Program-made: the position numbers and the translations under genes
Source: Desulfobacteraceae bacterium
Lineage (GTDB): Bacteria > Desulfobacterota > DSM-4660 > Desulfatiglandales > B25-G16
Direction of reading: 5' to 3'
Assembly: GCA_030615565.1 (NCBI GenBank)
Contig: JAUWZC010000001.1
Location: 1-37,272 of the forward strand
Length of the DNA stretch: 37,272 nucleotides
The notes under the pieces: generated by a model
The model's database searches: none
What the model was told of the DNA's origin: nothing
What the model saw: only the letters and a program-made list of their open reading frames with translations
Shown here: positions 15,495 through 28,164 of the stretch, piece after piece
Layout: every line of letters begins with the position of its first letter
How positions within the stretch are numbered: position 1 is the stretch's first letter

Positions 15495-16262
15495 ATGCAA
15501 TTTGCATTCTTTGGAACATCCGATATAGGCCGTCATCGTAAATATAACGAAGATAGTTATCTTTGTAATCCAAAAGAAAAATTATTTCTGATTGCAGACG
15601 GAATAGGTGGGCAAGCCGCTGGTGAAATAGCCAGCAAGCTTGCGATTAGAAACATAGAAGAATTTGTTGTTCGATCACATTCAGAAGATATAACCTGGCC
15701 TATACCTTACAGACAGGAGTTTACGTTAGATCAAAACAGTCTCCTTGCTGGAACCACTCTGGCCAACCGCAAGGTACGCGAGCTTGCAAATCAGAATCCT
15801 TCAATGAAAGGGATGGGGACAACCCTTGTTGGGGTCATTATTAAAGGAAATCTACTAGCTATTTTAAATATAGGAGATAGTCGATTATATAGGATTAGGG
15901 GTGGTGAGATAGAGCAAATCACCCAGGACCACACTGTGGCGGGAGAACAGGAAAAGCTGGGACTCCTGACTAAAGAAGAGGCCTCTAATCATCCCCAGAA
16001 ACATATTCTTACGAGTGCCCTTGGGATTGAAGTTATGGAAAATCTTAGAATAGACCTTTCCCTTGTTGATATACTTAAAAAAGATCTATACCTTATGTGT
16101 TCCGATGGATTGAATGATATGCTTAGTGATAAAGAAATACTGGCAATAATTAACTCTGATGAAAACAGGTCCCTTGAAAAGATTAGCCTTTCATTGATTC
16201 AACAGGCCAATCTTGCTGGGGGGCGAGACAATATAACTATTATTCTGCTATCTTTTTATTAA
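15495..16262 (+). CDS. PP2C-family Ser/Thr protein phosphatase
   Basis: 255-aa ORF with NEDSYL, ADGIGGQAAGEIAS, GMGTTLVG, GDSRLYR, CSDGLNDML and GGRDNITIILL, the canonical PPM motifs. Confidence 0.88.
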   Translation: MQFAFFGTSDIGRHRKYNEDSYLCNPKEKLFLIADGIGGQAAGEIASKLAIRNIEEFVVRSHSEDITWPIPYRQEFTLDQNSLLAGTTLANRKVRELANQNPSMKGMGTTLVGVIIKGNLLAILNIGDSRLYRIRGGEIEQITQDHTVAGEQEKLGLLTKEEASNHPQKHILTSALGIEVMENLRIDLSLVDILKKDLYLMCSDGLNDMLSDKEILAIINSDENRSLEKISLSLIQQANLAGGRDNITIILLSFY

Positions 16263-16281
16263 AAATATTTCAAAAGATGAT

Positions 16282-17934
16282 ATGCCAAGCTTAGATATCA
16301 CAACCTATGGTGGCCGAAGGTATAGCCTTCAAATCAAAAAAGAAAAAATTACCATAGGCAGAAGTCCCGACAACAATCTTATCCTTTCTGAAAAAAGCAT
16401 CTCCCGTCACCATGCTGAGATAAAAAAAATGAAAGACGGCTACCTTCTAGCCGACCTCGGAAGTTATAATGGTACAAAGGTCAATGAAAAGTCGATTCAG
16501 GGCGTCCTCCTAAAACACAACGATAAAATAAAAATCGGCCTAACAAGCCTGATCTTCCTGGCCAGAAAAAAGGATGAATTATCCCTCGAGGACCCCCTTG
16601 TCCTAACCATAGATAGTGATTATGAAAAAGAGCATAAAGAGGTACTAAAAAGCCTCTCAGATAGTGGTGCTATTGACTCTAAGGAGCTGTTAGTTTCTTT
16701 AGAAGCTATGAAAACCCCAAAAGAAGCTGCTATTTCTGCCCTTCCAGAAGAGACTCAGGCTGAATTAGAGAGAAGGAACAAGGTGCTCTTTGTGCTTTAC
16801 GAAATCAGTCGCCAGTTAAACACCATCCATGATTTTAGAGAACTCCTGAAAATAATAATGGATCTTATCTTTATGGTAATTAGTGCTGATTACGGTTTTT
16901 TGGTTCTTATTGGAGATGGAACAGAAGATCAACTCATTCCGGTGGTAGTCAAATATAGAAGCAACCAAGAAAAAAATAAGAGGAAATTAAAGGCTAGCCA
17001 AACCTTAATTCATAAAGTAATACATGGTAAAGTTGCTATATTAACATCAAACGCTATGGCCGATTCTCGATTTGATGGTGCCAAAAGCCTCTTTATCCAG
17101 AAAATCAGATCAGCTATTTGTGTGCCACTTTGGAGAAAAGACAAAATTATTGGTGTTATTCAACTCGACAGTATAAGATTTGATAACCAATTTAACCAGG
17201 ATGATCTCGAGCTACTTAAGGCCATTGGAAGTCAGATGGCCATGATAATTGAACAGGCCAGTCTTAATGAGCAGATAAGGGAAGAAGAGATAATGAGAAG
17301 CCGTCTAGAGAGATTTCACTCTCCCCAGGTAATTGAAATGATCTTAAAAGGAAGTCAAGAGACCAAAGATAACGTGATGGAGCCAAAGGATCTAACAGCC
17401 ACTATACTCTTTACAGATATTATTGACTTTACCCAGCTCGCGGAACGAATTTCTCCTCGAGAAACAAATATAGTTCTGAATCAATATTTTTCAACAATGA
17501 CAGATATTGTCTTCAGCTACGATGGCACCCTTGATAAGTATATAGGCGATGGACTGATGGCTGTTTTTGGAGCCCCAATGGAAAGAGAAGACGATGCGGA
17601 AAGGGCAATTCTGGCTGCCAAAGAAATGAAAAGCCAACTGGCAGTAATGATGACCGAAAAAGGAGGCCATAGAAAAAAATTTGATATACGGATAGGAATA
17701 AATACCGGGAGGGTGGTTGCCGGAAATATTGGTTCTCCCAAGCGGATGGACTACACCGTTATAGGAGACCCAGTCAATACTGCCTCAAGATTAGAATCAA
17801 TTGCCAAGCCGAATCAGATTCTTATAGGAGAGGAAACATACAGGGCTGTGAAAGATAAATTCAAAATAAGAAAAATTGGTCCAAAAAAGGTTAAAGGAAA
17901 AAGAGCGGATATTATGGTTTATGAAATTATTTAG
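16282..17934 (+). CDS. FHA - GAF - class III adenylate/guanylate cyclase
   Basis: 550-aa ORF. The FHA domain has ITIGRSPDNNLILSEKSISRHHAEI..GSYNGTKVN. A GAF-like central region follows. The cyclase domain has ATILFTDIIDFT, GDGLMAVFGAP, IGINTGRVVAGNIGS and YTVIGDPVNTASRLES. Confidence 0.88.
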   Translation: MPSLDITTYGGRRYSLQIKKEKITIGRSPDNNLILSEKSISRHHAEIKKMKDGYLLADLGSYNGTKVNEKSIQGVLLKHNDKIKIGLTSLIFLARKKDELSLEDPLVLTIDSDYEKEHKEVLKSLSDSGAIDSKELLVSLEAMKTPKEAAISALPEETQAELERRNKVLFVLYEISRQLNTIHDFRELLKIIMDLIFMVISADYGFLVLIGDGTEDQLIPVVVKYRSNQEKNKRKLKASQTLIHKVIHGKVAILTSNAMADSRFDGAKSLFIQKIRSAICVPLWRKDKIIGVIQLDSIRFDNQFNQDDLELLKAIGSQMAMIIEQASLNEQIREEEIMRSRLERFHSPQVIEMILKGSQETKDNVMEPKDLTATILFTDIIDFTQLAERISPRETNIVLNQYFSTMTDIVFSYDGTLDKYIGDGLMAVFGAPMEREDDAERAILAAKEMKSQLAVMMTEKGGHRKKFDIRIGINTGRVVAGNIGSPKRMDYTVIGDPVNTASRLESIAKPNQILIGEETYRAVKDKFKIRKIGPKKVKGKRADIMVYEII

Positions 17935-17962
17935 AGTCAAAAAATTTCCTTTTACTACCTGA

Positions 17963-18046
17963 TTATTCCTTCTTAAGATCCTCTATGTCCTTTTTAAGGC
18001 CTTTGACCTCTTCCTTTAGCTCACTTGTATCAAGTTCTTCATCAAA
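17963..18046 (-). repeat. Shared C-terminal tail module, copy 1 (inverted relative to 28878-28964)
   Basis: It encodes FDEELDTSELKEEVKGLKKDIEDLKKE*. By hand alignment, 64 of 81 aligned nt and 19 of 27 residues are identical to the tail of the 28698-28964 ORF. Confidence 0.8.
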
Positions 18047-19558
18047 TTTCTCTATATCTTTTTTTCGAATATAGGTAGCAATGTTTTTTCTTAATAAGGC
18101 ATATTCATCATTCATGCTTTTTAGCTTTTCCTTGGCATCTATTGCCTCTCGCTCTAATTCCTTCATTCTCAATGCAAGATCGGTTATATCTATATTGACA
18201 ACTACACATTCCTTGGATTTCCCATCGATGCTCTGAACAGGATAGACCCTTGCCAGAACATGCACGGGTTCCCCCTGAGCCGAATAATATTTCCATTCTT
18301 CTCCATTAAATGATTCCCCTTTAAAGACCCTTATTATTGTTTCTCTAAATGGTCGTCTTGTAGATTTTGAAACAAAGGTCAAAGGGTTGTTTCCAATCAT
18401 CTTAGAGGAAGGGTAACCAAAATTTTCTTCACACGCCTTATTCCAGAAGCTAATCTTACCTTTAGAGTCTATCTTATAAATAGCATTCGATGGCGATCCA
18501 ACTGCCTGGCCACGATTATCATATACGCTATAAGTTTCCCCTTGCACATTAGTAACATCCTGCATTATTTGTATAGCCCCTTTAATTGATCCATTGATGT
18601 CAAGAATCGGGGCAACTGCTACAATTGCCTGAATACCCTCTTTTATGTCAGGAAGAGGAACACCCACCTCAAAGAACCCGCTATCTGTCTTTGATACGAT
18701 TGAGCCGGAAAATTTATCTATTATAGTATCTGGGTCCTCTATCATAATATCAGCTAGACTCCGTTGCCTATCAACGCATAAAGAGGCAGGAACCTTCTTT
18801 CCAATTATTTCCTCTGTAGGTACACCTGTCATCTGCTGGCATGCACGATTCCACTGAATCACCCTATGTTCTACATCCACTACAAAGGTAGGGAGAGGAG
18901 ATTTCTCGACAAGAGTGTCAATGTAGTTCTTTGACTCTACAAGGGTCCTGGATCTGACCTGTTCTCTGTCGAGGACATCAGTCTTTTCCTTTTCATACAT
19001 GAAGGCAATTAAAAGAATAACCAAAAGGCCCGATAAATATGCGCCCAGGGAATAAATAGGTGAAATATCAGGGGGTATGAGATTTGGAAACTTGTAACCG
19101 CTCCTAAATAGATAAACTGCAACACCCGTTTCAAAAAATATTAAAGTCCCCCAGATAGTTCCCCATAGATATCCTGTAATGAAAACAGCCATAAGGATAA
19201 GGACAGCATTCCATATCCAGGATAAAAGGATTAAACCTCCTTCGCTCATTGCCCCAGTATTCCACCTAGTAATCAAAAAAGTAGCCCATAGGACAAAAAA
19301 GGCATAATTTCCAGCTACAATAAGATTTTTGGTCAGCCTTAGAAGAATCAGGGCCGAGATCGCTAATATACCGGCACCAATGGTAGTATAAAAGAGAAGA
19401 TCTGCCTTGATGTTAAAATAAAACAGGCCAAGGAAAAGGGAAAGAAGAATAAGGATACATAGAAATGTATTGAGGGATTTAAATTTCGTTATTCTTTCTA
19501 AATCCGGAGATTTTATTCCACACGTAATAAAATTGTTAAATAGAGATTTGAGGCTCAT
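17963..19558 (-). CDS. Polytopic membrane protein with two PAS domains and a C-terminal coiled coil, no recognisable output domain
   Basis: 531-aa ORF. About 6-7 hydrophobic helices occupy residues 25-190. Two PAS-like repeats follow (..VIQWNRACQQMTGVPTEEIIGK.. and ..ISFWNKACEENFGYPSSKMIGN..). A heptad-rich tail ends in DTSELKEEVKGLKKDIEDLKKE. There are no HisKA/HATPase, GGDEF, EAL or MCP motifs. Confidence 0.75.
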   Translation of the reverse strand: MSLKSLFNNFITCGIKSPDLERITKFKSLNTFLCILILLSLFLGLFYFNIKADLLFYTTIGAGILAISALILLRLTKNLIVAGNYAFFVLWATFLITRWNTGAMSEGGLILLSWIWNAVLILMAVFITGYLWGTIWGTLIFFETGVAVYLFRSGYKFPNLIPPDISPIYSLGAYLSGLLVILLIAFMYEKEKTDVLDREQVRSRTLVESKNYIDTLVEKSPLPTFVVDVEHRVIQWNRACQQMTGVPTEEIIGKKVPASLCVDRQRSLADIMIEDPDTIIDKFSGSIVSKTDSGFFEVGVPLPDIKEGIQAIVAVAPILDINGSIKGAIQIMQDVTNVQGETYSVYDNRGQAVGSPSNAIYKIDSKGKISFWNKACEENFGYPSSKMIGNNPLTFVSKSTRRPFRETIIRVFKGESFNGEEWKYYSAQGEPVHVLARVYPVQSIDGKSKECVVVNIDITDLALRMKELEREAIDAKEKLKSMNDEYALLRKNIATYIRKKDIEKFDEELDTSELKEEVKGLKKDIEDLKKE

Positions 19559-19701
19559 AATTGCTACTAAATAGGCTTGCTGATGAAAAGAGTAAAAGGG
19601 TTAATAATGAGATTCTCAAGAGACATTCCTTCATCATTAGGAACATAAACAGAAATATAACAATTTAACTTACAAATAATAAGGTAAAAACGAAAATAGT
19701 A

Positions 19702-20145
19702 TTAAAATATCGTAATCTTCCCTTCACGGTCGACAATTCCATTTATTTCCTTAACCCCGTCTTTAAAAAGGTTGAAAGAGGCCGAGATGGTAACTTGACA
19801 AAAGCCATCAGCCGTTGCTGGAAAGGTTTGAATTTGAAAGTTGAGATTGTGACCGACGGGAATAGGGACATTGAGTGCATCTTTGACATCTTGTATCTCT
19901 TGCTTGGTAGGAGGATCATTCTTAAATATATCTATACTTGTACCATCTTCTGGAAAAAATTTTTCATTCTCCAGAAAATACATGATCTCGGCATCAAGAA
20001 TCCTTTTTAGCATAAGAGCAGCCTCAGATCCATAGGCCCTCTGTTGATATATATTTAAGATTGGCATTGCTGTGGCACCTAAAATTCCCAAAATGGCAAC
20101 CACAACCATTAACTCAATAAGCGTAAAACCAGCATGTCTTCTCAT
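19702..20145 (-). CDS. Type IV pilin / pseudopilin-like protein with class III (prepilin) signal
   Basis: 147-aa ORF. MRRHAG|FTLIELMVVVAILGILGATAMP has Gly at -1, Phe at +1 and Glu at +5, followed by a hydrophobic alpha1-N helix. An AGGAG RBS lies inside the 3' end of the upstream gene. Confidence 0.8.
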   Translation of the reverse strand: MRRHAGFTLIELMVVVAILGILGATAMPILNIYQQRAYGSEAALMLKRILDAEIMYFLENEKFFPEDGTSIDIFKNDPPTKQEIQDVKDALNVPIPVGHNLNFQIQTFPATADGFCQVTISASFNLFKDGVKEINGIVDREGKITIF

Positions 20146-20150
20146 TTCAT

Positions 20151-20747
20151 TTAGGCTCCTCCGCTCGATGGCCGGGTATACTCAATACCTTTTGGTGATA
20201 GAATAACATTCATCTCCCCTGCCTTAGGATTTGCCACAGACAAGCGGTAGCCTGCCTCGGGATCCCTCTGATAAGATAATTTCTCCAAATGAAAAAGTTC
20301 ATCCTTTCTTAATGATAGATATTTAGGAACAAGATTGGATAGTTTTTCAGGGTATTTATCTCCTTCATAATGTGCATAACGCTTGATAGCCCCATCAACC
20401 ATAAACAATAGTACCCTTCCCTTTTTAGCAAAATCAATCTTTCTGGGAGGTGCAGGCTGACCACCAAAGATAATTACTCCCCACATCACCAGGATCAACA
20501 TAGATGAAATAATGACAAAATACTGAAAGGGACCCTTTTTTTTCTTTTTTTTATCTTCCTTCTCTGTAAGCTTTCCCTGCTTGTCTTTTATAGATGTACC
20601 GACTTCAGAGACAGAGTGAAGCATGGCACACTGAAAACAGTAATATTCGCCAGATCTCGACTCTTCACCGCATTCCTTGCACAGTGGCGCATTACAACTT
20701 GCACAAAAAAATTCTGCTTCCCTCTTAGGGTGATATTTACACTTCAT
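20151..20747 (-). CDS. Zinc-finger (B-box-like) / single TM / GspG-like periplasmic domain protein
   Basis: 198-aa ORF. The N-terminus CKYHPKREAEFFCASCNAPLCKEC..CFQC is followed by a KKKKKK linker and a TM helix FQYFVIISSMLILVMWGVIIFGG. The C-terminal AIKRYAHYEGDKYPEKLSNLVPKYLS resembles the T2SS major-pseudopilin globular domain. Confidence 0.6.
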   Translation of the reverse strand: MKCKYHPKREAEFFCASCNAPLCKECGEESRSGEYYCFQCAMLHSVSEVGTSIKDKQGKLTEKEDKKKKKKGPFQYFVIISSMLILVMWGVIIFGGQPAPPRKIDFAKKGRVLLFMVDGAIKRYAHYEGDKYPEKLSNLVPKYLSLRKDELFHLEKLSYQRDPEAGYRLSVANPKAGEMNVILSPKGIEYTRPSSGGA

Positions 20748-20863
20748 GAAAATTCCTCTTCTAAATAAGGCATATTTTTTATAGCTATTATTTTAAGGTA
20801 AAGGTAAGAAAAGATAAAGGAATAGTCAAGAAATAAATCTTTTTAGGTATGTTGAGCAAATTT

Positions 20864-22789
20864 TTAACTTTCAGGCTTCAAGCTATTTCCACAATAAGGA
20901 CAGGCAACCCAATCTGGCTGTACTATCCGCTTGCAAGAAGTACAGGTAGGAATTATAGGTTTTTTGCAATAGGGGCAGTCCTTGAAATCTAAGCTAACGG
21001 TTTTTCCACAATGAGGGCAAATGGTGGTCAATTCCTCCTTTTCGTGTACCGCTTTCAGTACCTCTTCTATGGTTGTTATTCCCATTTCTATCTTTTTCAT
21101 TCCACTAATCCCGAGGGTGGTCATCCCCATTGCCATGGCTGCTTCCCTCAAAGTATCGGCCGTTGCAGAGGACTGAATGAGTTCTCTTATTTTAGGACCA
21201 ATAATCATCATCTCTTCAATAGCCGTTCGCCCTCTGAAACCAGTATTATTGCAATTAGGGCACCCTGCCCCCCTGTAGAATTTAAAGGGAAGATCATTTT
21301 GATCCAGATTTAGTCTGGCCAGGGAATCTTGAGCAGGCAAATACTCCTCCCTACAATCCTCACATATGGTTCTTACCAGCCGTTGTGCAACAATTCCAAC
21401 TACAGAAGAAGCAATAAGATATGGCGGGATACCTATATCTATGAGACGAGTAACTGCCGCAGGAGCATCGTTTGTATGGAGGGTTGAAAGAACCAGATGT
21501 CCAGTCATGGAGGCCTGAACAGCTATCTCAGCCGTCTCTTCATCTCTTATCTCACCTATCATAATCACATTGGGATCCTGTCTTAAAATCGAGCGCAGAA
21601 TAAAGGGAAATGAAAGGCCAACCTTCTCGTTTATCTGTACCTGGTTGACACCAGACAACTCATATTCTACAGGATCCTCAACAGAAATGATATTTACCTC
21701 TTCCGACTTTATCTCCCGCATACATGCATAAAGGGTTGAGGTTTTTCCACTTCCTGTAGGGCCTGTAATCAAAACCATGCCCTGGGGACGATGGATAAAA
21801 TTCGTTATTATTTTCAGATTCTTCTGGCTTAATCCAAGTTGATCCACTGAGAGAAATGCTTCTTCTTTGTTCAAGATTCTTATAACAGCCTTTTCACCAT
21901 AATAAGTAGGAAGTGTCGATACTCTCAGATCTACAGATACATTTTTTGCCTTTACCTTTATCCTCCCATCCTGGGGAAGCCTCCTCTCTGCTATATTCAA
22001 ACCCGCCAATACCTTTATGCGCGAGATAATAATAGGTTGAGTCCATTTCGGGAGCTTGATAGAATCCTTTAGTACACCATCAATGCGATTTCTAACTCTT
22101 ACATGATTTTCCTGTGCCTCAATATGAACATCACTTGATCCACTCTTAATAGCATTCCTGATTATAAGATCAACCATTTTTATAAAAGGTGAATCCTTGA
22201 AAGATTCAAAATCCGCTTCTTCATCCACTTTCTTTTCTTCTTCGGGAAGAAACTCCATGAGGCCAGTATCTTCCACAAATTCATCAGCAACGTCCCTAAT
22301 TGTTCTTTCCGGATGGTAGTGTCTTTGAAGCTTGTCTATTATCTGGCTTCGTGTAGAAATAGCCGGCTGGATATTGTAACCAGTTATAAACTGGAGATCT
22401 TTCATTATATTCAGATCAAGAGGATCAGCCATGGCAACATCAAGTATATTATTTTTCATAGATAGAGGAACACATACAAACTTCTGACAAACCTCCTCAG
22501 GTAGACAGTCAATAACTTCATTTTTAATAGAATAGTCTATAAGATCAATGAAGGGAATCTTAAGTTGCATAGCCAGAGCAAAGGCCATTTCCTCTTCTGA
22601 AATGATCTTCATATCAATTAGGGCCTCGCCTAATCTTTTCCCAGTTTCCTTCTGAACCTCTAAAGCATCCTTTAGTTTATCAATAGTTAAAAGACCTGAT
22701 TCTATTAATAATTCTCCTAATTTACGTCGGGAGACAAAATTATCCTTATGTGTTTTATTCTTGGTTTGAATTGAGGCAGTATCTGCCAT
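20864..22789 (-). CDS. GspE/PilB-family type IV filament assembly ATPase with MshEN-type N-domain and C-terminal double zinc ribbon
   Basis: 641-aa ORF with Walker A GPTGSGKTS, Walker B VIMIGEIRD, His box LSTLHTND and the tetracysteine CEDC..CPNC. The N-terminus reads KLGELLIESGLLTIDKLKDALEVQ-KETGK-RLGEALIDMKIISEEEMAFALAMQ. An extra tail reads CPHC..CPYC..CTSC..CPYC. Confidence 0.92.
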   Translation of the reverse strand: MADTASIQTKNKTHKDNFVSRRKLGELLIESGLLTIDKLKDALEVQKETGKRLGEALIDMKIISEEEMAFALAMQLKIPFIDLIDYSIKNEVIDCLPEEVCQKFVCVPLSMKNNILDVAMADPLDLNIMKDLQFITGYNIQPAISTRSQIIDKLQRHYHPERTIRDVADEFVEDTGLMEFLPEEEKKVDEEADFESFKDSPFIKMVDLIIRNAIKSGSSDVHIEAQENHVRVRNRIDGVLKDSIKLPKWTQPIIISRIKVLAGLNIAERRLPQDGRIKVKAKNVSVDLRVSTLPTYYGEKAVIRILNKEEAFLSVDQLGLSQKNLKIITNFIHRPQGMVLITGPTGSGKTSTLYACMREIKSEEVNIISVEDPVEYELSGVNQVQINEKVGLSFPFILRSILRQDPNVIMIGEIRDEETAEIAVQASMTGHLVLSTLHTNDAPAAVTRLIDIGIPPYLIASSVVGIVAQRLVRTICEDCREEYLPAQDSLARLNLDQNDLPFKFYRGAGCPNCNNTGFRGRTAIEEMMIIGPKIRELIQSSATADTLREAAMAMGMTTLGISGMKKIEMGITTIEEVLKAVHEKEELTTICPHCGKTVSLDFKDCPYCKKPIIPTCTSCKRIVQPDWVACPYCGNSLKPES

Positions 22790-22909
22790 AGATCGTAGCC
22801 TTATTTGTATTTTAACCTTTAAAAAGCAATCTATCCAATTTTGTATATCATCGTTTAAACATTATTTCAACTCAATAAAAAATAATATAATCAATACCAA
22901 GGCTTTTCT

Positions 22910-22938
22910 TTGACATATAGGTATTAATTTGATATAAA
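22910..22938 (+). promoter_or_regulatory. Candidate sigma70-type promoter for the CHASE2-kinase operon
   Basis: TTGACA (22910-22915), a 17-nt spacer, then TATAAA (22933-22938), in the 267-nt AT-rich divergent spacer about 120 nt upstream of the ATG at 23057. Confidence 0.45.
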
Positions 22939-23056
22939 ATTCGATTAATTTTAAGTTGCTTAAATTATTTTTAAAAAATATATTAAGTTAGATAAATAGA
23001 ATTATGGTTACAGATTATCAACTAAAATATCCAAAATAATAATAACATTTAATTTC

Positions 23057-25573
23057 ATGAACGAAAGCGACAAAAAAACAAATTTGCTTATAGGCTCACT
23101 CATAGTGGTCATTTGTATTTACCTGTCTTTTATGAGCTTTCCCTTTTTTGAGTCACTTGAAAAGGTAATTTACGAGATCGAAATGCGGCTCGATACACCC
23201 CGTAACCCTGGTGAAAGCAAAGTAGCTATTGTAAATATTGATGATAAAAGTATCAATAAACTTGGCAAATGGCCCTGGCCAAGGCATATCATAGCTGAGA
23301 TGATCAAAATCTTAAAAAGTAATGGGGCAAAGCTTATTGGCATAGAGATGGTCTTTAGCGAAAAAGAACAAAATCTAGGCATCGAAGAGATAAAAAAACT
23401 TTACTCTAAAATCCTGAATCGAGAAAAAGTTTACACCACAGGAGAAAAACACACATGGATACTTGCTGAGTTGGAGGAGATTGAAAAACGCCTGGATAAC
23501 GATAAAGTCCTATCACAAACAGTGAAAAATACTGGAAATATAATCCTTCCAGTTATTGGCGAATTTGGAAAATATAGAACTGAATTAATAATTGCACCTG
23601 AATCATTCCTGAATATCAGCACATTGAAAAAAGATAGCATTAATATTGAAGACCAAACACCTGTCAAAGAATTAACTACTCCGTTTAATGAGCTATCAAA
23701 AAGCAGTCATGCTCTAGGACACACAAACCTATCCCCTAATAAACTAAGGGTGGGCCAAGTCCATATACCTTTTATCAATTATAGAGGACATATAATACCC
23801 TCTATGCCTTTACGTCTTGCCCTTGACTACCTAAATAAGCATCCTGAACAGGTAATAATTAAAGGGTCTGGAATTAAACTCGGAGAAGAAATTATTCCAA
23901 CCAGCAAGGGGGAAATGCTCATCAAATTTAAAGGTGGAAGACGATCCTTTCCATATTATTCATTTATAGATATCTTAAATGTTAAAAAGGTCCCAGCTGT
24001 ATTTGATGGCAAAATTGTCCTCATTGGCTTTACAGCCAAAGGAAGTGCTTCGGTTAACACACCGGTAGACCCTTATATGCCACAGGTAGAATTTATGGCC
24101 AACGTAATCGATGATTTTTTACATGGACGTTTTCTTAAACGCTCAAATGTAATGCTATATCTGGAGGTCTTTATCTTAGTGCTACTTGGACTGGCATCCT
24201 CATTCTTCCAATCCCGTTTCAGTTATTTAAACCGAACCGCATTCACAGCCGGGTTGATCTTTCTTGTCTTTTTAACCAGTGCCACCTTTTTTATATCATT
24301 TGATATATGGTTTAAAAGCATTTATATCCTTCTCTCTCTGACAACTATCTATGTTGTAATTATGGGAAAAGACTTTCTATATATTCACAAGACCGGTTTA
24401 TCAAAGGAGGCTATAGAAACTAACCGAATGCTTGGTATTAGCCTTCAAAGCCAGGGGTTGCTTGATCTGGCCTTTGAAAAATTCAGAAAATGTCCTCTCG
24501 ACGATGAACTGAGGGATGTTATCTACAATCTTGGGCTTGATTACGAACGAAAGAGAATGATTAATAAGGCTATTTCTATCTATGAATACATTAACAAGAA
24601 AGACAAAGGTTTTAGGGACTTAACTGAACGTATACCAAAATTAAAAAAGGTGATCAGTTCTCTACCATTAGGTGCCTATCAAGGAAAAAAGGAAGATAAA
24701 ATAGTTGTTTCAGATGACCTAGAAGTTAAGCCCACTGTCGGAAGATACGAAATACTAATGGAGTTGGGTCGGGGGGCAATGGGTACTGTTTACAAAGGGA
24801 GAGATCCTAAAATCAATCGCCTCTTGGCAATTAAGACAATCCGTTTCTCAGATGAATTTGAAGATGATCAGCTAAAGGAGATAAAAGAGCGCTTCTTTAC
24901 AGAGGCCGAGTTAGCAGGAAAACTCTCACACCCCGGAATCGTTGCCATACACGATATAGGAGAAGACTATGATCTTACTTATATGGCCATGGAATTCTTA
25001 GACGGGGAGGACCTAGAGAAATACTGTAAGAAAGGATCGCTCCTTCCAATTAGAAAACTACTAGATATTATAGCTGAAACAGCAGATGCCTTAGAATATG
25101 CACACAACAATGGTGTAATTCACAGGGATATAAAACCAGCAAATATAATGCTATTAAAAAATGGCAGAGTAAAGGTAACTGATTTTGGGATAGCAAAGTC
25201 AATGTCTGCCTCAAAAACCAGAAGTGGAATAATACTCGGTACACCTAACTATATGGCACCAGAACAGATTATGGGTCGCCAGATAGACGCTCGATCGGAT
25301 ATATTCTCTCTGGGTGTTGTGTTCTTTCAGCTCCTAACAGGAGATTTGCCATTCCGTGGGGACAACCTGAACAGCCTTTTTTACAAAGTTACCCAAGTTA
25401 AGCATCCCTCACCTAGTAAAATAAATCCAAAGGTTATAAAACCGTGTGAGCAGATACTTGATAAAGCATTAGCTAAAAACCCGGATCATAGATTTCAGAA
25501 GGCTAGTGATCTTGCTAAGTATTTAAGAATTTTGGCTAATAAAATTGATACCCTGAGGGTGAAAAAAAAATAA
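23057..25573 (+). CDS. CHASE2 sensor - TM - TPR-like - Hanks-type Ser/Thr protein kinase
   Basis: 838-aa ORF. After an N-terminal TM helix comes the CHASE2 hallmark VAIVNIDDKSINKLGKWPWPRH, then three TM helices around residues 365-440. The kinase motifs are GRGAMGTVYKG, AIK, HRDIKPANIML, DFGIAK and GTPNYMAPE. Confidence 0.88.
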   Translation: MNESDKKTNLLIGSLIVVICIYLSFMSFPFFESLEKVIYEIEMRLDTPRNPGESKVAIVNIDDKSINKLGKWPWPRHIIAEMIKILKSNGAKLIGIEMVFSEKEQNLGIEEIKKLYSKILNREKVYTTGEKHTWILAELEEIEKRLDNDKVLSQTVKNTGNIILPVIGEFGKYRTELIIAPESFLNISTLKKDSINIEDQTPVKELTTPFNELSKSSHALGHTNLSPNKLRVGQVHIPFINYRGHIIPSMPLRLALDYLNKHPEQVIIKGSGIKLGEEIIPTSKGEMLIKFKGGRRSFPYYSFIDILNVKKVPAVFDGKIVLIGFTAKGSASVNTPVDPYMPQVEFMANVIDDFLHGRFLKRSNVMLYLEVFILVLLGLASSFFQSRFSYLNRTAFTAGLIFLVFLTSATFFISFDIWFKSIYILLSLTTIYVVIMGKDFLYIHKTGLSKEAIETNRMLGISLQSQGLLDLAFEKFRKCPLDDELRDVIYNLGLDYERKRMINKAISIYEYINKKDKGFRDLTERIPKLKKVISSLPLGAYQGKKEDKIVVSDDLEVKPTVGRYEILMELGRGAMGTVYKGRDPKINRLLAIKTIRFSDEFEDDQLKEIKERFFTEAELAGKLSHPGIVAIHDIGEDYDLTYMAMEFLDGEDLEKYCKKGSLLPIRKLLDIIAETADALEYAHNNGVIHRDIKPANIMLLKNGRVKVTDFGIAKSMSASKTRSGIILGTPNYMAPEQIMGRQIDARSDIFSLGVVFFQLLTGDLPFRGDNLNSLFYKVTQVKHPSPSKINPKVIKPCEQILDKALAKNPDHRFQKASDLAKYLRILANKIDTLRVKKK

Positions 25574-25608
25574 AGAAAATAATAGTTGTGAAGAATTAAG
25601 GAGAAAAA

Positions 25609-26436
25609 TTGAAAATCACAGCTGCTGGACTTTCTGATGTTGGCCTTAAGAGGGAAAGTAACGAGGATTACCTTACGATAGACAATTCTACTGGATTATA
25701 TATAGTGGCTGATGGTATGGGAGGGCATCAGGCTGGAGAGGTTGCCAGCAGGGTTGCCGTACAGATAATCCAGAAAAACGTTAACAATTGGATAACTAAG
25801 AACAGTCCTATGGTTGACTTATTCGACTTTCCGGACATGACCCTGAGCCAAAGAGGTAATTATATATCAAGTAGCATAAAATTAGCTAACAGGGTTATTT
25901 ATGAAATGTCTCAAGAATATACAGAATACAAGGGCATGGGGACAACGATTGTAATCTTGGCAATAATGCCCTCTACTATAATTGCAGCTAACGTGGGCGA
26001 TAGCAGGATCTATCTTATAAGAGGAGATACAATGGAACCTCTTTCTAAGGAACATAGCATGGTAGCCGAACAGTTAGAGATGGGTCTGATATCTGAGGAA
26101 GAAGCAAAAATTTCTCCTTTAAGACATATACTTACGAGGAATCTGGGTTCAACAGGTATAGTTGATGCAGATGTTTTCGAAATTGAGCACATAAATAATG
26201 ACCGTTTTTTACTCTGCACTGATGGGCTGACAGATCTTGTATCAGACGATGAGATACTAAGCATTATCAAAAATGGAAATGACCCTGATTATATCTGTCA
26301 GCAACTCGTTTCTGAAGCTAATAAGAGGGGTGGTTATGATAATATCACTGTCTCTTTGATATGTTTAAATGAACAAAATGATGAAAAGCAGGGAATCATA
26401 AGAAGATTTGGAACCTTTTTAAAAAATAAAAAATGA
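25609..26436 (+). CDS. PP2C-family Ser/Thr protein phosphatase (second copy)
   Basis: 275-aa ORF with a TTG start 5 nt after AAGGAG. Motifs are NEDYL, ADGMGGHQAGEVAS, GMGTTIV, GDSRIYLIR, CTDGLTDLV and GGYDNITVSLI. Confidence 0.88.
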   Translation: MKITAAGLSDVGLKRESNEDYLTIDNSTGLYIVADGMGGHQAGEVASRVAVQIIQKNVNNWITKNSPMVDLFDFPDMTLSQRGNYISSSIKLANRVIYEMSQEYTEYKGMGTTIVILAIMPSTIIAANVGDSRIYLIRGDTMEPLSKEHSMVAEQLEMGLISEEEAKISPLRHILTRNLGSTGIVDADVFEIEHINNDRFLLCTDGLTDLVSDDEILSIIKNGNDPDYICQQLVSEANKRGGYDNITVSLICLNEQNDEKQGIIRRFGTFLKNKK

Positions 26437-26477
26437 GCTTATGTTTTTCTTATTAACCACAAAAAGGGGCATATGTT

Positions 26478-27200
26478 ATGGCACGGGTTATATTAGTATT
26501 TAATAAAAAAGTGATTAAAGAGTATCCTTTTGCCAAAGATAGCATGACCATCGGGCGGGATGAAGTAAATGATATTGTAATCGATAATCTGGCGGTATCC
26601 GGTCACCATGCTAGGATAGACAAAACCGGAGATACCTATATCCTTACCGACTTACAAAGTACAAACGGAACCTTTGTTAATGATAAGAAAATTACCTCTC
26701 ATAAATTGCTGCATAAGGATAAAGTAATTATTGGCAAACATCTCCTTTTCTTTGCTATGTCAAAGCAGGAACAAGCCAAAGCTAAAGATGGAGAGCTTGA
26801 TAAGACCATGATCCTTGACACAGCCAGGCAAAAGGAGCTATTAGAGAAACAGGCTGAAAAAAAGGCCATGGCTGTACCCGCTCAAAAAGGTAAACTTGGT
26901 ATCATAACCTTCATCGACGGTTCCGGTGAAGGCGAAATTCAACTGACGAAAAAACTAACCAAGATAGGCAAAGCTGAAACGTCGGAAATAAGGCTCGGTG
27001 GTGTGTTCATGCCTCCTACAGCAGCTACTATCAGTCGCAGACCAAATGGTTATGCTATTTCATCCACTGGTGGGAGAACAAAGGTAAAAGTAAATGATCA
27101 GGTGATAAAAGAAAGCCATTACCTGAAGGATTTTGATACAATTGAAATAGGATCATACAAATTCCAATTCTATAGCCAGGATAGTAAAGATGCAAAATAA
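26478..27200 (+). CDS. Double FHA-domain protein (canonical N-terminal FHA plus degenerate C-terminal FHA-like domain)
   Basis: 240-aa ORF. The N-terminal domain has MTIGRDEVNDIVIDNLAVSGHHARI..LQSTNGTFVND. The C-terminal part reads TKIGKAETSEIRL..ATISRRPNGYAISS..KVKVNDQVI. Confidence 0.8.
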   Translation: MARVILVFNKKVIKEYPFAKDSMTIGRDEVNDIVIDNLAVSGHHARIDKTGDTYILTDLQSTNGTFVNDKKITSHKLLHKDKVIIGKHLLFFAMSKQEQAKAKDGELDKTMILDTARQKELLEKQAEKKAMAVPAQKGKLGIITFIDGSGEGEIQLTKKLTKIGKAETSEIRLGGVFMPPTAATISRRPNGYAISSTGGRTKVKVNDQVIKESHYLKDFDTIEIGSYKFQFYSQDSKDAK

Positions 27201-28164
27201 AATAAGTAGAAAAAATAGAGTAAAAATAAATATACTTTATTTAATTATTGCTATCCTTCTTTCTTCCCCTTTTTATTTAGAGGCATCTGAAAGGCAATCT
27301 ATCAAGGTTAAAGCAGATGACTCGATAAGTTTCCTTAGCTTCAAAATTTATGGCAGATTCCACCCTGAAATGCTTAAACAATTCTCAAAAATTAATCCCC
27401 ATGTTAAAGATTGGAATAATCTTACTGTAGGAACAGAAATAAAATTTCTAACCGAAAAAGAAATGAATAGCATTATTCCAGAGCAAAAAAAAGAAGTGAT
27501 AATTATAACCTTTTTGAAACATCCAGTAAAAATTAAAAAGGGTGCCAAAGGTCCTCATAAAAGAGCTCTATTAAATATGATCCTTGATTCAAAAGATTGT
27601 ATAGAGGTAAGAAGTGGTGGCAGCGTAGAATTAATGATGAGCTATGGAAGGGTCATCAGGCTAAATGAGGGCTCAACCTTAAAAATTGGTACCTTAAAGA
27701 GGGATGAGAAAAAAAAATCAGTTGTAGGAAAATTCAAACTCTTTCTTGGAAGGCTCTGGGGAAAGGTATTAAAGGCTCGATCTTATAGAAAAAAAGAGAT
27801 GTACGTGTCCACGCCAACACTCGTAGCTGGTGTCAGAGGGACAGCATATGACCTAAAATTAAAGCGTGACCAGTCCACAATCATCAAGGTTTTTGAAGGA
27901 GAGGTTGAAATATATAATCCTTTACAAAAAATGCCCGAATCCGGAGTTATTAAGGATTTTAAAAAACCACATAGGGTTAAAGGCCCCCACAGAATCACCG
28001 AAAAAGAATGGAATGAGATCCTTCTCAGGCAATACCAACAAGTAATTGTTACAAAAGAGGGCATTAGCGAACCTATTATATTCGACTACGAAAAGGAAAG
28101 GCAAACTGAATGGATAAAATGGAATGAAGAGAGGGATCTAAGATTAAGTGAAAGGGAGACCTAA
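27190..28164 (+). CDS. Exported LysM-like / FecR-domain protein
   Basis: 324-aa ORF overlapping the FHA gene stop by 11 nt. It has a signal or anchor helix ILYLIIAILLSSPFYL and a LysM-like segment IKVKADDSISFLSFKIYG..NNLTVGTEIKF. The FecR-like beta region reads IRLNEGSTLKI..VAGVRGTAYDL..VFEGEVEIYN. Confidence 0.65.
   Translation: MQNKISRKNRVKINILYLIIAILLSSPFYLEASERQSIKVKADDSISFLSFKIYGRFHPEMLKQFSKINPHVKDWNNLTVGTEIKFLTEKEMNSIIPEQKKEVIIITFLKHPVKIKKGAKGPHKRALLNMILDSKDCIEVRSGGSVELMMSYGRVIRLNEGSTLKIGTLKRDEKKKSVVGKFKLFLGRLWGKVLKARSYRKKEMYVSTPTLVAGVRGTAYDLKLKRDQSTIIKVFEGEVEIYNPLQKMPESGVIKDFKKPHRVKGPHRITEKEWNEILLRQYQQVIVTKEGISEPIIFDYEKERQTEWIKWNEERDLRLSERET

Follow-up and report, generated by a model that had tools for sequence, protein, structure and literature searches.

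A B-box zinc-finger protein with a membrane-tethered, pseudopilin-like head, encoded between a pilus-type ATPase and a prepilin in Desulfobacterota

What is a pilin-type head doing on a protein that opens with a zinc finger and is held in the membrane by a single helix? The question is raised by a minus-strand gene in a stretch of 37,272 nucleotides from a Desulfobacteraceae bacterium (GenBank assembly GCA_030615565.1, contig JAUWZC010000001.1, positions 1 to 37,272), which we call the window. An initial annotation, made from the letters of the DNA alone, had described the product as a chimera of a B-box-like zinc finger, a lysine linker, one transmembrane (TM) helix and a head resembling that of the pseudopilin GspG. 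The elements that it listed (ligand spacing, run of six lysines, TM stretch and C-terminal segments) were all found when the 198-residue translation was read again, the quoted periplasmic segments lying at residues 120-145 and 159-171. Both kinds of domain are already known, and what is new is their use here: a pseudopilin-derived domain that does not polymerise, is tethered to the membrane and is combined with a B-box. Literature searches found no paper describing this architecture of B-box, TM helix and pseudopilin head. The parts of the protein are given below with the evidence for each, where AF2 stands for AlphaFold2 and pLDDT for its predicted local distance difference test score (87.4 for the full-length model).

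20151..20747, minus strand: whole open reading frame (ORF), 198 aa and a stop codon, encoding a bitopic protein with B-box, TM helix and pseudopilin-like head
20622..20747, minus strand: B-box-type finger predicted to bind two zinc ions, residues 1-42 (Pfam zf-B_box, ligand conservation, pLDDT 96-97)
20532..20621, minus strand: charged cytoplasmic helix (38-64 in the model) ending in K66-K71, residues 43-72 (AF2, pLDDT 57-84; K/R count)
20460..20531, minus strand: single TM helix, residues 73-96 (hydropathy; AF2 helix 73-95)
20421..20459, minus strand: Pro/Lys-rich flexible linker, residues 97-109 (no predicted secondary structure, pLDDT 71-78)
20172..20420, minus strand: periplasmic head, residues 110-192 (AF2 domain-only model; transitive homology)

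There is good support for the view that this protein is not a polymerising pilin: a class III signal and Glu5 are both missing, its helix is split, and a folded cytoplasmic domain would hold it in the membrane. A class III signal has the form G|F-x-x-x-E. Here the TM helix is preceded by KKKG-PFQYF, which has no Glu at +5 and stands behind a folded leader of 72 residues. The initial annotation had denied the protein a prepilin signal, and rightly so, for Pfam N_methyl misses it and matches the neighbouring pilin. The continuous alpha-1 helix of true pilins is interrupted as well, since the AF2 model separates TM helix 73-95 from head helix 110-127 by an unstructured linker of 13 residues. With three defining features missing (class III signal with N-methylation motif, continuous alpha-1 helix and a match of the head to T2SSG), the protein should be said to carry a pseudopilin-derived domain and should not be filed as a pseudopilin. 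A superficial resemblance to the G|F cleavage site of prepilins exists at the junction K-K-G-P-F-Q-Y-F (residues 70-77, 20517-20540), which has Pro at +1 and no Glu at +5 and is not kept in distant members.

A protein of this build might still take part in a fibre, as a terminal or anchoring pseudo-subunit. It would then be the last subunit at the fibre base, where elongation would stop because the protein is unable to leave the membrane, and a short periplasmic or surface fibre would be anchored there. Such a role would suit a head related to pseudopilins and a cytoplasmic domain that cannot be extracted from the membrane, and the N or E that most distant members have within the TM helix could, being polar, pair with the pilin alpha-1N; the window clade, however, has no polar TM residue. 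The role is also hard to reconcile with the flexible linker that parts TM helix and head helix, with the lack of Glu5 and of a pilin-like alpha-1N sequence, and with a head that is unlike that of the cognate pilin. We hold it to be very unlikely.

Where, then, does the head come from? Judged by sequence profiles, it very probably descends from a GspG-type head, the link running through intermediates only. These intermediates are collected in profile A3, i.e. 16 sister heads (six PATAN-type, two short-anchor and eight distant B-box proteins, the first two forms being presented below), none of them a true prepilin or a member of the window's close clade. The close family of the window matches A3 at an hhalign probability of 97% (P 1e-10, 75 of ~90 columns), and the window head alone matches it with 38.6 bits. 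At the other end of the chain, A3 matches 29 GspG heads of the same phylum at 96% (P 2.4e-9), over 53 columns that include the P-x-DP-x-G-x-Y-x-Y strand. Against the whole PDB its eight best matches are all GspG/PulG/EpsG, with E-values from 2.5e-4 to 0.025 (3fu1 2.5e-4, 4lw9 3.8e-4, 3gn9 5e-4, 1t92 4.4e-3), and nothing else falls below E 0.8. Taken group by group, the sister heads reach the GspG heads at 89-96% over 50-57 columns, and control profiles of GspG, reversed or column-shuffled, never rise above 1.9%. Four sister heads also show sub-threshold matches to Pfam T2SSG, with E-values of 9e-4 (19.7 bits for a cut-off of 21), 0.045, 0.059 and 0.083. The AF2 model of the head alone (pLDDT 86.6, predicted template modelling score 0.78) consists of helix 110-127, the 'YP' at 132-133, a short helix at 136-139, helix 148-156 and four strands; this order of helix, loop and four strands is compatible with a pilin head.

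What stands of the pseudopilin-like head first proposed is this transitive link, whereas direct matches to T2SSG, to GspG profiles or to known folds did not substantiate it. Pfam T2SSG (PF08334) gives no match to the window protein at E up to 1 and none at the locus in a six-frame search of the genome. Nor is it among the 25 families listed for the 69 family members that were scanned, which form our alignment A1 and reach down to ~20% identity. HMMER profiles of A1 and of the family head (A2) returned only B-box and RING proteins from the PDB, with GspG appearing once (E 0.11) over the TM helix and the head helix. When A2 is compared with the 29 GspG heads, hhalign finds a local match of 26-30 columns (P 4e-6 to 2e-4, probability 45-87%), spanning the head helix and the Y-x-x-x-x-G-x-YP motif. 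A profile search of a large protein collection with the head alone brought up no prepilins, its matches all being truncated gene calls from the family itself, and Foldseek against BFVD with the domain-only model found nothing significant. Other results weigh against a GspG origin and against any role built upon it. Foldseek against the PDB gave no significant match for the full model (best E 0.8; PilX at rank 35, E 2.8, TMt 0.38) and, for the domain-only model, listed no pilin among its first 50 matches (best E 0.2), so that the fold search against GspG-type structures proposed in the initial annotation yielded no pilin from confident models. The close family of the window reaches just 0.2% in hhalign when compared directly with GspG. 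Compared with the head of the cognate pilin, the window head reaches 0.5%, and BLASTP gives no alignment; on these two counts we rejected the idea that the head is a recent duplicate of the adjoining pilin.

One might speculate from such results that the resemblance is incidental. An unrelated small alpha/beta domain would then share with GspG only the helical motif A-L-x-x-Y-x-x-x-x-G-x-YP, and pilin-type contacts would play no part in its function, which might for example be that of a chaperone or lie in the remodelling of the envelope. This fits the absence of pilins from the Foldseek results, the lack of a direct T2SSG match and the few columns of the direct hhalign match between the window family and GspG. 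But it is at odds with the sister groups, whose matches run on through the P-x-DP-x-G-x-Y-x-Y strand, with GspG being the sole significant PDB match of their profile while controls stay low, and with the prepilin linked to the gene at every examined locus. We see very little probability in an incidental likeness. As to its details, the relationship to the GspG core claimed from the sequence was upheld through the intermediates, with a slightly different register: the 'Y-x-Y' strand of GspG corresponds in the profile alignment to L-S-Y159 of the window protein, and 'RDPEAGY' aligns with the beta-turn after that strand ('SPGDKGT') and not with 'DPWG-x-Y'. The GspG alignments stop after the Y-x-Y strand, short of the C-terminal calcium-binding loop. 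By the same profile comparisons, the window clade is the most diverged branch of the head family.

The sister proteins came from a search of 401 genomes of the phylum with A1, in which the module of TM helix and head was also found without the B-box. In the short-anchor form (131-138 aa; L067 in G082:C6 and L068 in G394:C1) a short N-terminal tail precedes one TM helix and the same head, again with no prepilin motif; one of the two proteins matches T2SSG at E 0.059. The PATAN form is longer (360-480 aa) and joins a PATAN/DUF4388 domain, a GspE_N-like segment, one TM helix and a GspG-like head. It occurs at loci L071, L074, L077, L080, L081 and L084 of the Desulfobacterota genomes G033, G315, G399, G141, G289 and G072, with Pfam E-values of 1e-28 to 1e-33 for DUF4388 and of 9e-4 to 0.083 for T2SSG. 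As far as can be read from their domains, these proteins look like an undescribed, membrane-anchored branch of PATAN proteins. PATAN has been shown to bind PilB1, a pilus extension ATPase, in its N-terminal part (bioRxiv 10.1101/2021.06.11.447907), and this binding, together with the sister fusion, suggests that the cytoplasmic partners of the head module address the motor. The sister architecture, with its PATAN domain, GspE_N-like segment, TM helix and identical kind of head, is what relates the window protein to PATAN proteins of the Synechocystis PixE/PatA type. The window protein itself has a B-box instead, and PatA-type proteins are soluble response regulators without a periplasmic domain.

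On which side of the membrane does the head lie? The protein has a single hydrophobic stretch at residues 74-96 (Kyte-Doolittle 19-mer maximum 2.57), preceded, as had been claimed, by KKKKKK at residues 66-71; the 15 residues on the N side of the TM helix hold 7 K or R. Across A1, K+R average 5.65 in the 15-residue flank on the N side and 1.51 in that on the C side, and the positive-inside rule gives an N-in/C-out topology in 66 of the 69 members. The proposal of a cytoplasmic N-terminus and a periplasmic C-terminus is borne out by these flanks, which point away from the cytoplasmic location of the C-terminal domain that the initial annotation had named as fatal to its interpretation. A folded, Cys-rich zinc domain without a signal peptide is a further argument for a cytoplasmic N-terminus, and the pairs or triplets of Cys found in the C-terminal domain of 6/69 members fit a periplasmic location. 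Polar residues occur within the TM helix at alignment position 90 (N in 27/69, E in 7/69) and at position 88 (E in 11/69), most of the distant members carrying one; the window clade has M-W-G, without a polar residue, at residues 88-90 (20478-20486). Given this pattern, positions 88 and 90 may form an intramembrane contact site.

On the cytoplasmic side, the finger is a member of the B-box family at the level of sequence, and zinc binding is predicted. The seven Cys and one His claimed for the N-terminus have exactly the spacing C-x2-H-x8-C-x2-C-x4-C-x2-C-x10-C-x2-C in the translation, the ligands being C3, H6, C15, C18, C23, C26, C37 and C40. In A1, C15, C18, C37 and C40 are invariant and C3, H6, C23 and C26 are conserved in at least 90% of the members; besides the eight ligands, P133, L136 and Y159 vary little or not at all. 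Pfam PF00643 (zf-B_box) matches residues 2-28 with 28.9 bits, above its gathering score of 24.1 (E 1.3e-6), which confirms the B-box-like finger of the initial annotation, and it matches 67/69 family members at E up to 1. The closest PDB sequence matches of the finger are the B-boxes of TRIM21, MID1, TRIM63 and TRIM54 (E 0.008-0.1). In the AF2 model, residues 1-40 have a pLDDT of 96-97 and are followed by helix 38-64. The top Foldseek matches of the full model are zinc fingers (Rim2, Slp4, GATA), but at E 0.8 or more. The likeness to eukaryotic B-boxes (TRIM, MID1) thus covers the eight conserved Cys/His ligands and a helix after the finger, as in the TRIM B-box/coiled-coil. The window protein differs from them in being bacterial and membrane-anchored, without RING or SPRY partners, and in its last pair, C-x2-C, which follows a 10-residue spacer, the Pfam match spanning only the first six ligands.

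Other membrane proteins, too, are matched at their N-termini by the B-box part of the family profile (L076, L078 and L079, also L069, L072, L073 and L083). At L078, a B-box-like N-terminus and a TM helix are followed by a polysaccharide deacetylase domain (PF01522, E 4e-32); the other such proteins are small and have several TM helices. Judging by these matches, the finger seems to be a cytoplasmic module common among Desulfobacterota membrane proteins.

How widespread is the architecture? A protein collection search found 542 clusters at 90% identity (best E 1e-126), all from metagenome-assembled genomes (MAGs) of Desulfobacterota; nearly all members have 196-200 aa and come from MAGs of Desulfobacterales or Desulfatiglandales. 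An exhaustive phmmer search of 1.84 billion representatives gave 161 matches (representatives at 50% identity), dozens of them full-length, with ~195 aa and 20-32% identity. With the window protein as sole query, phmmer reaches full-length relatives of 20-30% identity at E 1e-19 to 1e-6. Such numbers of conserved clusters and representatives show that the ORF is not a chance reading frame. Hundreds of sequence clusters keep the architecture, besides which the two sister architectures exist. A single-protein scan of species-representative genomes found only close relatives, all of them in MAGs of Desulfobacteraceae, Desulfatiglandales or 'Deltaproteobacteria' that have not been cultured. The carriers are thus uncultured marine organisms related to sulfate reducers. 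At least 20 DNA sequencing runs, mostly of sediments, marine and other, contain near-identical DNA, and the same run search found no RNA run carrying the locus.

In databases, the family bears only the names 'hypothetical' or 'B-box zinc finger protein'. An NCBIfam scan of the window protein returned only a spurious match to TcaA (E 0.04). Many of the public gene calls P0272-P0325 have 150-159 aa, which is consistent with a start at the internal Met42. A start at Met42 would remove the B-box from the gene call, so that the architecture is hidden in part of the databases. The annotation gap is therefore twofold: databases recognise the B-box only, and many gene calls drop the finger entirely. 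A role in defence was rejected, as PADLOC has no match for the zinc-finger protein or the pilin.

If the protein is not a fibre subunit, its gene nevertheless keeps the company of one. The genes and signals around it are the following.

19702..20145, minus strand: cognate prepilin, 147 aa, with GFTLIE class III signal (Pfam N_methyl E 8.4e-10)
20156..20162, minus strand: GGAGGAG, Shine-Dalgarno sequence of the downstream pilin gene, within the last codons of the zinc-finger ORF (sequence reading)
20755..20760, minus strand: AAGAGG, candidate Shine-Dalgarno sequence, 7 nt 5' of the ATG (inferred from sequence reading)
20864..22789, minus strand: MshE/PilB-like ATPase, 641 aa, with MshEN N-domain of the cyclic di-GMP (c-di-GMP) type, T2SSE and C-terminal double zinc ribbon (Pfam, NCBIfam)
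17963..19558, minus strand: polytopic membrane protein with two PAS domains, co-oriented downstream (Pfam PAS; synteny only in the close clade)

The stop codon of the zinc-finger ORF is separated from the prepilin ATG by 5 nt, which, together with the pilin Shine-Dalgarno sequence inside the ORF, suggests that the two genes are translationally coupled. In 17 related loci, the gap ranges from -13 to +20 nt. All nine loci of the phylum genomes have a prepilin gene directly downstream, as do 17/17 loci of species-representative MAGs with room for it and also L054 and L055. An MshEN-T2SSE ATPase is directly upstream in 7/9 loci of the phylum genomes and in 14/16 of the species-representative MAGs. 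The linkage to a prepilin holds even in members that are only ~24-32% identical. The prepilin partner of a distant subfamily (L091, L093, L094, L095 and L055) is a protein of 374-397 aa with an N_methyl motif and a 3-keto-disaccharide-hydrolase/lectin-like domain.

Farther out, the flanks of the window module (15495-28164) hold two PP2C phosphatases, a CHASE2 Ser/Thr kinase, FHA proteins, a FecR-domain protein and an FHA-GAF class III cyclase, and these signalling neighbours are syntenic only within the close clade. At L093 and L094, the module stands beside a giant PAS-rich protein (at L093 an 8xPAS hybrid histidine kinase of 1756 aa), and at L055 a response-regulator gene precedes the ATPase.

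What would the protein do in such a module? We propose that it serves a small type IV filament module as a dedicated accessory, i.e. a membrane-anchored, pilin-docking adaptor or regulator, and we put the chances of this at about even. The module would consist of an MshEN-type ATPase, the zinc-finger protein and one prepilin. The periplasmic head would dock the cognate pilin or the nascent fibre base through pilin-type head contacts. On the cytoplasmic side, the B-box and its helix would either form oligomers or make contact with the ATPase. The supply of pilin might in this way be coupled to the motor, which would make the protein functionally comparable to the GspL or PilM/PilN adaptors, without homology to them. 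B-boxes are known to oligomerise in TRIM proteins.

The cytoplasmic half of the proposed adaptor raises difficulties of its own. The presence of B-box-like N-termini on unrelated membrane proteins implies that the finger may be a generic module for oligomerisation or localisation and not a binder of the ATPase. Contact with the ATPase may not be obligatory either, as 2/9 and 2/16 loci have no adjacent ATPase gene. Furthermore, the initial annotation had suggested that the protein could link the ATPase, with its extra zinc ribbons, to the periplasmic fibre base, and had proposed to test the finger against the ribbons; a link to the ribbons did not survive comparison. The double ribbon (20864-20990 in the window) is kept in the close clade, where C-P-Y-C closes 14/16 of the upstream genes; in distant modules (L093, L095 and L055), the ATPase keeps MshEN and T2SSE but not the ribbon. 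Since distant modules pair a B-box protein with ribbonless ATPases, the ribbon cannot be the conserved partner of the B-box, and we rejected it as such. Across these sequences the ribbon is not conserved, which weighs against a specific ATPase contact. A link between the zinc-finger protein and the ATPase itself is plausible.

The same components can be read as a signalling device. A cytoplasmic zinc finger, one TM helix and a periplasmic domain would make a transmembrane sensor or regulator, whose head would monitor the pool of cognate pilin or the state of the fibre and whose B-box would signal to cytoplasmic proteins, somewhat like zinc-finger anti-sigma factors or the sensing of PilA by PilS, and without a direct role in assembly. 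The surroundings of the module lend themselves to this reading: in the window it sits amid signalling genes (PAS membrane protein, CHASE2 kinase, two PP2C, FHA, FHA-GAF cyclase), distant modules adjoin the 8xPAS hybrid histidine kinase and the response regulator, and some family genes have no adjacent ATPase. Yet, the signalling neighbours differ outside the close clade, and tight coupling to the pilin with ATPase adjacency across distant lineages is more typical of structural operon partners. The comparison with anti-sigma factors itself finds no echo in the locus, as the protein has no zf-HC2 match and its neighbours, among which no sigma factor gene occurs, encode kinase, phosphatase, FHA, PAS and cyclase proteins. 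A sensor is possible, though we rather doubt it.

A bolder view would let the zinc-finger protein replace both the platform (PilC/GspF) and the adaptors of the GspL/M type, in a self-sufficient three-gene machine gated by c-di-GMP. Broadened further, tethered heads would generally couple cytoplasmic modules (B-box, PATAN) to pilins. No T2SSF platform and no A24 peptidase was found in the fetched neighbourhoods (up to ~10 kb per side) of nine loci. Yet the other contigs of the window's genome carry a prepilin peptidase, three platform proteins and six GspE-family ATPases, and on a complete 2.5-Mb chromosome with the module, two platform genes lie far away. T2SSF genes were found elsewhere in the window's genome and in five other carriers, one of them that complete chromosome, and we rejected the idea of a platform-free genome. 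Since every examined genome has platform genes elsewhere, replacement of the platform is not favoured, even with none within 10 kb in nine loci, and we consider this bolder view improbable. It is possible that a platform acts in trans.

How does the proposed adaptor compare with known components of such systems? With GspG/PulG it shares a head that opens with the A-L-x-x-Y-x-x-x-x-G-x-YP helix followed by beta strands, the P-x-DP-x-G-x-Y-x-Y strand being kept in the sister heads, and a gene that adjoins those of a GspE-family ATPase and a prepilin. It differs from them in lacking the class III signal, the N-methylation motif and Glu5, in its folded cytoplasmic N-domain of 72 residues and in its split helix. 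The head itself misses the long alpha-beta loop of GspG and, in the window clade, has a short helix in place of the DPWG loop. GspL of the type II secretion system and PilM/PilN of the type IVa pilus offer another comparison, as the window protein is likewise a bitopic N-in/C-out protein encoded between ATPase and pilin genes, and by analogy it could plausibly bridge a cytoplasmic motor and periplasmic pilin handling. The domains are different, with a zinc finger here and not an actin-like fold, and a pilin-like and not a ferredoxin-like periplasmic domain; the Pfam families of GspL, PilN and PilO give no match to the window protein at E up to 1. In Geobacter, PilA-C (Spc) is a head-only partner that follows the truncated pilin PilA-N and enters the fibre. 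It resembles the window protein as a separate protein of the pilin-head type, without prepilin signal, encoded beside a pilin gene in Desulfobacterota. PilA-C has no zinc finger, however, and in the window the two genes stand in the opposite order and the adjoining pilin comes with a head of its own.

To our knowledge, all described type IV filament systems use a polytopic platform with adaptors of the GspL/M or PilM/N/O kind, and we know of no pilin-fold domain in them other than those of cleavable, polymerising subunits. The family presented here uses a pseudopilin-derived head as a permanent membrane-tethered module, joined to a zinc finger or, in the sister proteins, to PATAN. If the head docks pilins, these proteins would form a new class of pilus accessory or regulator, and the module would be a simple three-gene system for studying how a motor ATPase is coupled to the extraction of pilins from the membrane.

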